Source of the DNA: Promethearchaeum syntrophicum
Lineage (GTDB): Archaea > Asgardarchaeota > Lokiarchaeia > Sigyniarchaeales > Promethearchaeaceae
NCBI RefSeq assembly: GCF_008000775.2
Contig: NZ_CP042905.2
Location: 690,001 to 722,000, forward strand
Length of the DNA stretch: 32,000 bases
Reading direction: 5' to 3'
How positions within the stretch are numbered: the first letter of the stretch is position 1; the number at the start of each line of letters is the position of its first letter. This document shows positions 4,324 through 6,731 of this stretch, one piece after another. The notes beneath the pieces were generated by a model that worked only from the letters and a program-made list of their open reading frames with translations, was not told the origin of the DNA and made no database searches. Position numbers and translations under genes: made by a program.

Positions 4324-5289
4324 TTATTTCTCTTCTTTCTTTATTTCTTTCTTTTCTATATCAGCTTTTTTTGAAGCTTTTTTAGAAGTCTTTTTTTTTG
4401 TTGATTTTTTCTTTGAAGCTTTTTTCTTTTTAGTTGTTTTTTTTTTCTTCTTTGGTTTTTCTTCTTTTTCTTCAGATTTATCTTCTGGAGCGGTCAATTC
4501 TTCAAAAACTTCATCTTTTTTCAAAGTATCCTCATCAGTTTCCAAAATGGTTTCTTTTGAATCTGAGATTTCATCAAATAAATCATCAACCAATGTAGCG
4601 TCTTCATCAATTTCTTTAATTGGTGGAAGATCTTCTTCTTTATAGAATTTATCTACAGGAGCAACTTCTTTTGGGGCAGCTTTCTCTTCAAAAATTCCTT
4701 TTCTAATTTCTACATAATCTGGTAATAAATAATCTTTAGACATAATTGAAACCCGGATTCCCAATACCCCTGATTTTAATGTTAAATGAGCAACTCCTTT
4801 ATCGACACCTTCATATGCCGGAGTACCACACTTATTAATAACTCCTGATCTGAACACTTGATTACGAGCACGTTGGGATGTAACTTTACCGCTAATATGA
4901 ACTTCCACTCCCCGTGCGCCTGATTTTATAATTCGACGAATAATACTATATGTTGCACGTCTATAATTTTGACCCTTGTTAATTGCATAAGCAATTCTTT
5001 CGGCTTGAATTTGTGCATTTAAATCGGGATTTTCTATAGTATCAACATCAATTGTTGGTACATTAATATTAAACTTCTCTTTAACGGCTTCGGTTAGTTC
5101 TTTGATTTTTTTACCTTTCTTTCCAATAACTAATCCGGGTCTAGAAGTTCGAATTGTAATTCTTGTACCCATAGGAGTTTTTTGTAGAGCGCAACCTGAA
5201 TATCCTGAGTTATCTAATTCCGTACGTAAAAATTCATCAACTAAACATTGTTGAATCCCTTTATTAATGAAATGTTTTTTAATTGGCAT
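4324..5289 (-). CDS. rps3: 30S ribosomal protein uS3 with a long acidic-then-lysine-rich C-terminal tail
   Basis: 321 aa. KH-domain core (GTRITIRTSRPGLVIGKKGKKIKELT) and the S3 C-terminal domain run to about residue 200. They are followed by a ~120-aa low-complexity tail (D/E-rich, then KKKKKTTKKKKASKKKSTKKKTSKKASKK). Confidence 0.95.
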   Translation of the reverse strand: MPIKKHFINKGIQQCLVDEFLRTELDNSGYSGCALQKTPMGTRITIRTSRPGLVIGKKGKKIKELTEAVKEKFNINVPTIDVDTIENPDLNAQIQAERIAYAINKGQNYRRATYSIIRRIIKSGARGVEVHISGKVTSQRARNQVFRSGVINKCGTPAYEGVDKGVAHLTLKSGVLGIRVSIMSKDYLLPDYVEIRKGIFEEKAAPKEVAPVDKFYKEEDLPPIKEIDEDATLVDDLFDEISDSKETILETDEDTLKKDEVFEELTAPEDKSEEKEEKPKKKKKTTKKKKASKKKSTKKKTSKKASKKADIEKKEIKKEEK

Positions 5290-5316: not shown

Positions 5317-5784
5317 CTATTTTTCCTCTAATACAATTTCAACATGGCTTAATTGGGAAAAATATGGACTTGATCTTCCATGAGCTCTTTCAATATATCG
5401 TTTAAGTGTTCGACCTCTCATAACCGCTGTGTGGATTATATGCAATCGATCTGGGTCTAATCCTTTATATTCTGCGTTTGATTCTGCATTTGTCAAAACA
5501 TCATATACAAATTTAGCTGATTTTTCTGGATAACGCCCTGCCGGGAATTTATGAAGATGCATTCCATGTCTATGTCTGACTTTTTTATTTGCTCTACGAA
5601 ATGGAACCGGTGTTTTTATAAGTATAACTCCTTCTAAGAAGGTTTTTGCTTTTTCTAAAGACATTCCTTTGATGGTATTGCATACTTCACGAGTTTTTTT
5701 TGGAGATACTTTAAGATCTCGCCCACTCGCTATTGCAGTCTTGTCTTTATCAAGCCCTGAGAATGAATATTTCCAATTTGGCAT
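5317..5784 (-). CDS. rpl22: 50S ribosomal protein uL22
   Basis: 155 aa. ..ASGRDLKVSPKKTREVCNTIKGMSLEKAKTFLE.. and ..RAHGRSSPY....HVEIVL are typical of archaeal L22/L17e. Confidence 0.93.
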   Translation of the reverse strand: MPNWKYSFSGLDKDKTAIASGRDLKVSPKKTREVCNTIKGMSLEKAKTFLEGVILIKTPVPFRRANKKVRHRHGMHLHKFPAGRYPEKSAKFVYDVLTNAESNAEYKGLDPDRLHIIHTAVMRGRTLKRYIERAHGRSSPYFSQLSHVEIVLEEK

Positions 5785-5790
5785 TTTTAT

Positions 5791-5952
5791 TTACCTTATT
5801 TTTTTATTTATATGATTATTAATTGTTAATTTGATTCCAGCAGGCAGATTTGGAATTACTCTGCGCGGATAAGGTGCATACGGTGCCAATATTTCACGTT
5901 GAAGTGCATATCGGGCATATACACGCCCCAGTTTTTTCATAACTGGGCGCAT
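5791..5952 (-). CDS. small basic hypothetical protein (53 aa), unlisted ORF between S19 and L22
   Basis: Hand translation: MRPVMKKLGRVYARYALQREILAPYAPYPRRVIPNLPAGIKLTINNHINKKIR. The frame is open for 83 codons (5794..6042), which is unusual in such AT-rich DNA. GGTGA lies 5 nt upstream of the ATG, the same SD type as for S14. The stop is only 6 nt before the L22 start. Against: the codon choice is G+C-rich and atypical, and I recognise no homologue. Confidence 0.4.
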   Translation of the reverse strand: MRPVMKKLGRVYARYALQREILAPYAPYPRRVIPNLPAGIKLTINNHINKKIR

Positions 5953-6067
5953 TAAATTCACCAAATCTAAGATCTTTCGATCTTGTAGTGAGTTTTCTAA
6001 AGATTGATCATTAAAATGTTTTGCGATTTGAAATTGATTTCCTTAGCGTTGATTAGAAAATCGTGAA

Positions 6068-6077
6068 ATTTATAAAG
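6068..6077 (-). promoter_or_regulatory. TATA-box-like element (CTTTATAAAT on the minus strand), candidate internal promoter for the small ORF/L22...L6 block
   Basis: Consensus-like archaeal TATA (TTTATAAA) in the non-coding spacer. It lies downstream of oligo-T tracts that follow S19 and about 25 nt upstream of where the long open frame begins. Confidence 0.3.
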
Positions 6078-6122
6078 GAAGCAGTCGGCATTGAAACTAC
6101 TTTAATTTTGTCCAATATGAAT

Positions 6123-6195
6123 AAAAAAAGACATTTAATGATTGAGAATGAAGTAAAAATAAAAATAATTCTAAAAATTAAAGAAAAAGAGAAAT
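6123..6195 (-). terminator. oligo-T tracts downstream of S19 (candidate archaeal intrinsic terminator)
   Basis: On the minus strand there are several T5-T7 runs directly after the S19 stop codon (A-runs on the plus strand at about 6123-6129, 6155-6168, 6173-6190). Archaeal RNAP terminates at oligo-T. Confidence 0.3.
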
Positions 6196-6205
6196 AGAAT
6201 AAATT

Positions 6206-6622
6206 CTATTTCAGAGGAACAAATTGGGATGACCTAGTTGCTCCAACACCCGGATTTCCATGTTGTACCTTCTTGCATGTAGGGCTATATTCACCCAAAT
6301 ATTTACCAATATGATCCGGTGTGATTTTAACAGAAATAAATTCAAGTCCGTTATGAACTCCAATTTCCAAACCTATAAACTCTGGAAAAATTATCATATC
6401 CCTATTATGGGTTCTCACTACAACTTCACGACCATTTTTGAGGGCTTTTTTGGCTTTCTTCAACTTTTTTAGCAATTTTTTTTGCCTTTTCGGCATACCC
6501 CTAATTAAAGATCTCCTTTGTCGTGATGGAAGTAATTTGATAAATTCTTTCATAGACATTTTTCGTAGTTCTTCTAGGTCTTTACCTCGGTATAAAAATT
6601 TACGTCTTGACGATTCCGACAT
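6206..6622 (-). CDS. rps19: 30S ribosomal protein uS19
   Basis: 138 aa. ..VVRTHNRDMIIFPEFIGLEIGVHNGLEFISVKITPDHIGKYLGEYSPT.K.V.HG.PG is a clear S19/S15e match. Confidence 0.95.
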   Translation of the reverse strand: MSESSRRKFLYRGKDLEELRKMSMKEFIKLLPSRQRRSLIRGMPKRQKKLLKKLKKAKKALKNGREVVVRTHNRDMIIFPEFIGLEIGVHNGLEFISVKITPDHIGKYLGEYSPTCKKVQHGNPGVGATRSSQFVPLK

Positions 6623-6731
6623 TTTACAAAGGAGAAAAATTGATCATAAATTAATAATTTTTTGTTTTTCACCAAGTAGGTAATTTAGGAAATTTATTAA
6701 TTTCATTAATCCTTATTCCAATTATCATATC

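Follow-up and report, generated by a model that had tools for sequence, protein, structure and literature searches.

Cis-regulatory RNAs known or predicted in archaea are very few, and the predicted ribosomal leaders among them number four, namely L4-Archaeoglobi, S15-Halobacteria, S15-Methanomicrobia and eL15, none of which concerns L22 or S3 (Eckert and Weinberg 2020, doi 10.1101/2020.01.29.924993). In the literature searched, we found no cis-regulatory RNA described for Asgard archaea. Here we describe a new candidate ribosomal leader, with good comparative support for its structure, in the spacer between the uS19 and uL22 genes of Promethearchaeum syntrophicum, whose genome consists of one 4.32-Mb contig; all positions refer to the window, the whole 32,000-nucleotide stretch of DNA that was analysed. 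Like the leaders of ribosomal operons described so far (the L4 leader of the bacterial S10 operon and the archaeal predictions), the element is a covarying, single-copy structure that lies on the same strand as the ribosomal operon that follows it and is confined to one lineage. It differs from them in matching no Rfam family, in standing before L22 and S3 and in belonging to an Asgard lineage, and its regulatory role is a prediction. A search of the window against Rfam 15 gave no match at the gathering threshold, and the best sub-threshold match was to snR52 (22.8 bits vs 45, E = 1.8). A second parallel is the L7Ae/kink-turn autoregulation in archaeal 5′ UTRs (PMC5539422), in which a structure in an archaeal 5′ UTR is likewise proposed to bind a ribosomal protein. 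However, none of the hairpins described below (P0, P1 and P2) contains tandem G-A pairs after a 3-nt bulge, and the downstream gene is not that of L7Ae. We also rejected P1 as a kink-turn or K-loop, since its loop in P. syntrophicum (genome G000) is a plain heptaloop.

The ORF list and Pfam searches gave the minus-strand order uS19, spacer, uL22, uS3, uL29, Rpp29, uS17 and uL14, with all genes here on that strand. The uS19 gene (6206..6622, minus; Pfam PF00203, E = 2.5e-29) is a separate unit upstream of the spacer and stands alone, since the cupin gene on its upstream side is divergent, and the uL22 gene (5317..5784, minus; PF00237, E = 3.1e-29) heads the operon L22-S3-L29-Rpp29-S17-L14 and onwards. 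The spacer between the two, at 5785-6205, measures 421 bp, in agreement with the original prediction of an insertion of about 420 bp between genes that are usually neighbours. Indeed, in the sister families of the order S19 and L22 are adjacent, about 25-70 nt apart, with the leader element absent and no room for it. In family f1 the S19-L22 linkage is broken, so that the spacers are 400-1100 nt long, or S19 lies more than 1.5 kb off, or S19 is inverted. The leader element is present only where this linkage is broken, and its distribution thus associates its presence with L22 being now the first gene of its own unit. Within f1, the S10-type cluster is broken at the S19-L22 point in several different ways. 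In the closed genome G013 (genus g5), S19 is found 1.2 kb upstream of L22 and on the opposite strand (L029, 3173-3457 vs 1501-1962), and in five other f1 genomes there is no S19 within the upstream sequence examined (1.5 kb; only 594 nt in G011). In two congeners of P. syntrophicum, G003 (L003:1921-2310) and G001 (L004:1900-2217), a gene for a multi-helix membrane protein of 105-129 aa is inserted between S19 and the leader.

The G+C content of the spacer reaches a maximum of 0.47 at 5850-5949, the highest value between 4000 and 8000, vs 0.17-0.30 in the flanking spacer; the G+C-rich patch of the original prediction was therefore recovered, together with the two hairpins that it had named, at 5950-5925 (loop AUGAAAA) and 5984-5969 (loop GAAA). 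The sense strand of 5868-5990 folds at -41.2 kcal/mol (z = -4.97), a stability reached by 0 of 200 shuffles, with the minimum-energy structure accounting for 31% of the ensemble, and the antisense fold is weaker (-34 kcal/mol, z = -3.6). The minimum-energy fold includes hairpin P0 (5961..5990, minus), with the core AAGAUC-GAAA-GAUCUU at 5984-5969, which is the probable 5′ end of the leader; in single-sequence folds, a GAUC...GAUC hairpin occupies the same place in most other genera. Hairpin P1 (5925..5950, minus) has 9 base pairs, a bulged G at 5948 and the heptaloop AUGAAAA at 5940-5934. The longer hairpin P2 (5874..5924, minus) consists of a 9-bp base, the bulge ACC at 5884-5882, an upper stem GCCC/GGGC and a variable tip, while P3 (5834..5856, minus; AUUCCA...UGGAAU) is genus-specific and was predicted from single-sequence folds only. 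The P2 tip of the three congeners (L002, L003 and L004) carries a 9-nt insertion near 5903 with a purine-rich loop, GAAAAAGUGAAU, and in G003 this insertion repeats the P1 loop motif AUGAAAAA. Readings of P2 as an H/ACA or bulge-helix-bulge element were rejected, there being one bulge only, no pocket and no conserved ACA (an ACA follows P2 in only 3 genera). A box C/D reading of AAUGAUCA was likewise rejected, as the box is not conserved and no D box accompanies it; G011 and G012 do not retain AUGAUC(A/G/C), and G000 is without CUGA.

The same RNA is conserved on the L22 strand in related genomes as P0, P1 with its bulged G and the loop AUGNAAAA, and the long P2 with a (C)ACC bulge. Its core runs GCGCC-stem-AUGNAAAA-stem-GGCGUG, followed by (A/G/U)(U/A/G)UAUGCCC, a variable hairpin, GG(C/U)ACC and a closing strand. 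Within the genus, which is represented besides P. syntrophicum by the congeners G001, G002 and G003 (Promethearchaeum sp.), identity is 84-100% over the roughly 330 nt between 6130 and the L22 ATG, compared with 72-74% at the third codon positions of L22; the part closest to L22 (5870-5785) is 91-98% identical, and the 75 nt nearest S19 are 28-69% identical. Ten genomes from 4 genera of one family, among them Ca. Lokiarchaeum ossiferum B35, have the core upstream of L22. RNAalifold predicts both P1 and P2. In a model-based alignment of these 10 sequences, from a family that has about 30 more L22 variants, 95.5% of the 220 pair cells are standard-paired, compared with 84.6% in shuffles and 26-55% when the partners were slid. 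Compensatory changes on both sides were found in 9 of the 22 pairs (3 of the 7 modelled pairs of P1, where 97% of cells are paired, and 6 of the 15 of P2), with about 5 independent lineages contributing, and none of 500 shuffles reached the observed value on any of five measures. For example, one P1 pair occurs as C-G, G-C or A-U, and in G009 the outermost pair of P1 changes from G-C to C-G. The AUG and the A-run of the P1 loop are invariant in all ten sequences. The many G-U pairs assign the RNA to the L22 strand, as does the better fold of the sense strand. When each sequence was folded singly, P1 and P2 appeared in nine of the ten genomes, and G008 gave only P2.

In order to define the distribution of the element, we used the covariance model R1, which gave exactly one match per genome, always upstream of L22 and in sense orientation, in 10 of the 14 genomes of family f1. 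There was no match in 47 genomes from three other families of the order, nor in the 148 genomes outside f1 in the phylum sample (27 other families), and the leader is thus specific to one family of Promethearchaeia. Within that family, genus g3 has weak R1 matches at the homologous place (13.9 and 11.7 bits) and a P2-like hairpin with the same bulge, and in genus g4 folding gave a hairpin that resembles P2 and likewise has the AC(C) bulge; it therefore seems that the core shared by the whole family is the helix-bulge-helix of P2. A metagenome scan with a loose 14-base pattern returned at least 80 chance loci, none of those listed matching the model. Overall, the covariation, the fixed position upstream of L22 and the strand-specific G-U pairs support a structured RNA leader, which the original prediction had offered as its alternative reading.

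The signals around this structure fit a terminator followed by a promoter, as judged from the spacer sequence. Five oligo-T runs of T5-T7 were located after the S19 stop (6123..6188, minus), at 6188-6184, 6177-6173, 6165-6161, 6159-6155 and 6129-6123, where such tracts had been expected directly after S19. The stretch is poorly kept within the genus (28-69% identity), and the runs likely represent the archaeal termination zone of the S19 unit. Downstream of them, a TATA box that had also been anticipated on the minus strand was confirmed as TTTATAAA at 6076-6069 (6069..6076, minus). Its flanks are conserved: the three congeners have TATATAAA as the box, all four genomes of the genus share an identical 3′ flank, AATTTCACGATTTTC, and 17 of 20 nt in the block around it are identical in Lokiarchaeum ossiferum. 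In G003, the segment corresponding to 6129-6021 (about 110 nt, including this distal box) is present twice, before the inserted gene and before the leader. Closer to the structure lies a proximal BRE/TATA-like element, CGCAAAA-CATTTTAA (6011..6025, minus), a putative promoter with CGAAAA-TTTATTTAA versions at the same relative spot in all genera with the element. Either of these two conserved TATA-like elements may serve the leader. By analogy with S19, we infer that a transcript from the proximal element would start at about 5986, at the foot of P0. The upstream regions of S19 and L22 have a 13-mer in common, ATGATCAATYTTT, just after an A-T-rich TATA-like stretch (6630-6660 and 6002-6014, minus); it lies about 16 nt before the S19 ATG, and its 12-nt core ATGATCAATYTT occurs only 10 times genome-wide. 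As a general promoter motif, the shorter TTAATGATC was rejected, since its 99 occurrences vs 121 expected show no enrichment.

At the other end of the leader, a Shine-Dalgarno-like AAGGU (5793..5797, minus) is followed by an 8-nt spacer to the L22 ATG. Most genera with the element have AAGG(A/U) or AGGA about 8-14 nt before this ATG, with AAAGAGAG instead in G011; the 3′ end of the 16S rRNA is GAUCACCUCCA. No T5 run is present between P2 and the L22 ATG, which, together with the retention of the Shine-Dalgarno-like motif in most genera, favours read-through into L22, and we infer that the leader is cotranscribed with the operon as the 5′ UTR of its mRNA.

We propose, as a moderately probable explanation, that the element is the structured 5′ leader of the L22-S3-L29 operon and serves as an operator for ribosomal-protein feedback. 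The spacer would then be the boundary of two transcription units, at which the S19 unit would end in the oligo-T tracts and a promoter would start a new transcript, whose first 200 nt or so (about 5986 to 5785, minus) would form the structured 5′ leader. The leader core, P1 and P2, would be the putative binding site for a ribosomal protein encoded in the operon, and this protein, when in excess over rRNA, would bind the leader and lower the expression of the operon, as in bacterial and a few archaeal leaders. The position of the element, its single copy and its invariant loop and bulge nucleotides make feedback by a ribosomal protein of the operon the most likely role. In the single-sequence folds, the L22 ribosome-binding site was not consistently masked; in each genus the sequence that follows P2 contains short stretches complementary to this site (7 bp in G000, ACCUUAU/AUAAGGU), but the folds do not show their pairing. 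A loop-loop contact between P1 and the tip of P2 is possible in G013 only.

A more specific form of the operator proposal concerns 16S helix 34, whose irregular part is included in the uS3 site (PMC5499641). UAUGCCC(C) is common to the 5′ strand of P2 and the 3′ strand of helix 34, and both have a small CA-containing bulge on the opposite strand, although the bulge is offset by 2 nt. In genus g5, the P2 5′ strand GUGAGUAUGCCCCAAAUC agrees with the rRNA sequence GUCAGUAUGCCCCUAAUC at 16 of 18 positions, a value found in about 1 of 300 shuffles, whereas the genome studied here shares only 7-8 nt, which is at chance level. A search for a structural mimic in its own 16S and 23S rRNA, by pattern scan and by covariance model, gave nothing credible. 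The resemblance is a weak lead towards uS3, which is encoded by the second gene of the operon. That the leader serves uS3 or another head protein of the operon (e.g., uS14) as an operator, mimics the irregular part of helix 34 and arose as the ancestral S10-type operon was split in a single family of Promethearchaeia is, in our view, unlikely. On this reading, the AUG that is invariant in the P1 loop may also link the fold to the access of ribosomes. The uS3 protein of this genome and of its congeners has a C-terminal extension of about 120 aa, acidic and then lysine-rich (4324-4689, minus), which could matter if uS3 is the ligand of the leader.

The structural and positional evidence that carries the operator proposal applies equally to a cis-acting structured leader with another role, such as protection of the long operon mRNA from 5′ exonucleases, a processing site or a riboswitch-like sensor of a small molecule or ion by which ribosome synthesis would be set. 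The place of P0 at the predicted 5′ end would suit such a leader; a tertiary contact might be made by the loop AUGNAAAA, the bulged G and the GCCC/GGG helix, of which the loop and the helix are invariant, and the lack of a convincing rRNA mimic also speaks for it. However, hairpins that merely stabilise a transcript need no invariant loop and bulge nucleotides, and the gene context suggests no ligand for a sensor. We know of no riboswitch for ribosomal operons in archaea. We regard these other roles of a leader as possible but rather unlikely.

The element could also be a gene for a separate small non-coding RNA, driven by a promoter of its own, in which case L22 would be transcribed from a closer one. 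The two conserved TATA-like elements upstream of the structure and its character as a G+C-rich island, like that of archaeal RNA genes, agree with this, and in several genera the L22 ATG is preceded, at 20-35 nt, by A-T-rich TATA-like stretches, which may leave room for a second, closer promoter. Against this, the element always lies directly before L22 and on its strand, despite the rearrangements further upstream; moreover, an oligo-T terminator is missing between P2 and L22, the Shine-Dalgarno-like motif implies a 5′ UTR, and the RNA has neither an Rfam match nor C/D or H/ACA boxes. For these reasons, we consider a separate RNA gene improbable, and retain the operator leader as the preferred reading.

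Lastly, the structure overlaps an open frame of 53 codons, counted from its ATG, which runs over P1-P3 (5791..5952, minus) and is part of a stretch of 83 open codons, as the original prediction had stated. The headline of that prediction, a hidden basic protein of 53 aa, is not supported, as the frame is unconserved and lacks codon periodicity, so that its overall interpretation is supported for the RNA leader but not for the protein. All three congeners (G001, G002 and G003) have in-frame TAG or TGA stops, which arrive with the 9-nt insertion near 5903 in DNA that is about 90% identical. Within the genus, the variable columns are distributed 8:5:6 over codon positions 1, 2 and 3, with no excess at the third position. 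In other genera, when read from the AUG of the P1 loop, the frame comprises 1 codon in G008 (AUG-UAA), 13-15 codons in G007, G011 and G012, 42 in G013 and more than 80 in G009. Codon 7 encodes V, E, G or D, and yet its nucleotides covary with those they pair with in P2. The peptide had been described as unmatched, and no Pfam family was found for it. Its database relatives are seven ORFs of 49-93 aa, 79-96% identical and all from close kin, of which three carry the insertion without a stop; since a protein database can only contain open-frame variants, this count of open frames is biased, and the substitutions observed, A/V and A/T, are the very C/U and G/A exchanges by which P2 stays paired. 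Two metagenomic ORF variants, P0123 and P0128, run past the stop, and one reaches the L22 start region, which suggests either indels in the A-rich sequence that precedes the L22 ATG or faulty assembly. That this frame, or a short uORF from the loop AUG, is translated and is functional as a peptide or through translation across P1-P2 would agree with the invariance of that AUG in all ten sequences, with the GGUGA 6 nt before the AUG at 5952 in this genus and with the seven database proteins that keep the frame open, but we judge it very improbable given the stops, the variable lengths, the covarying codon 7, the even spread of variable sites, the compensating changes of P1 that fall outside the loop-AUG frame, the lack in most genera of a Shine-Dalgarno motif ahead of the loop AUG and the database bias. 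The 53-codon frame is probably incidental, an accidental by-product of an RNA that is richer in G+C and evolves slowly.

The finding removes a spurious "hypothetical protein" that gene callers have annotated over this RNA in several assemblies. Both cultured Asgard species lines, Promethearchaeum and Lokiarchaeum ossiferum, carry the candidate leader, which can therefore be tested at the bench. If the reading as a uS3 operator is true, Asgard archaea would gain their first described ribosomal-protein feedback loop and prokaryotes, to our knowledge, their first leader with uS3 as its ligand. For the family that carries it, the element shows a new control element arising when an ancient ribosomal operon splits.
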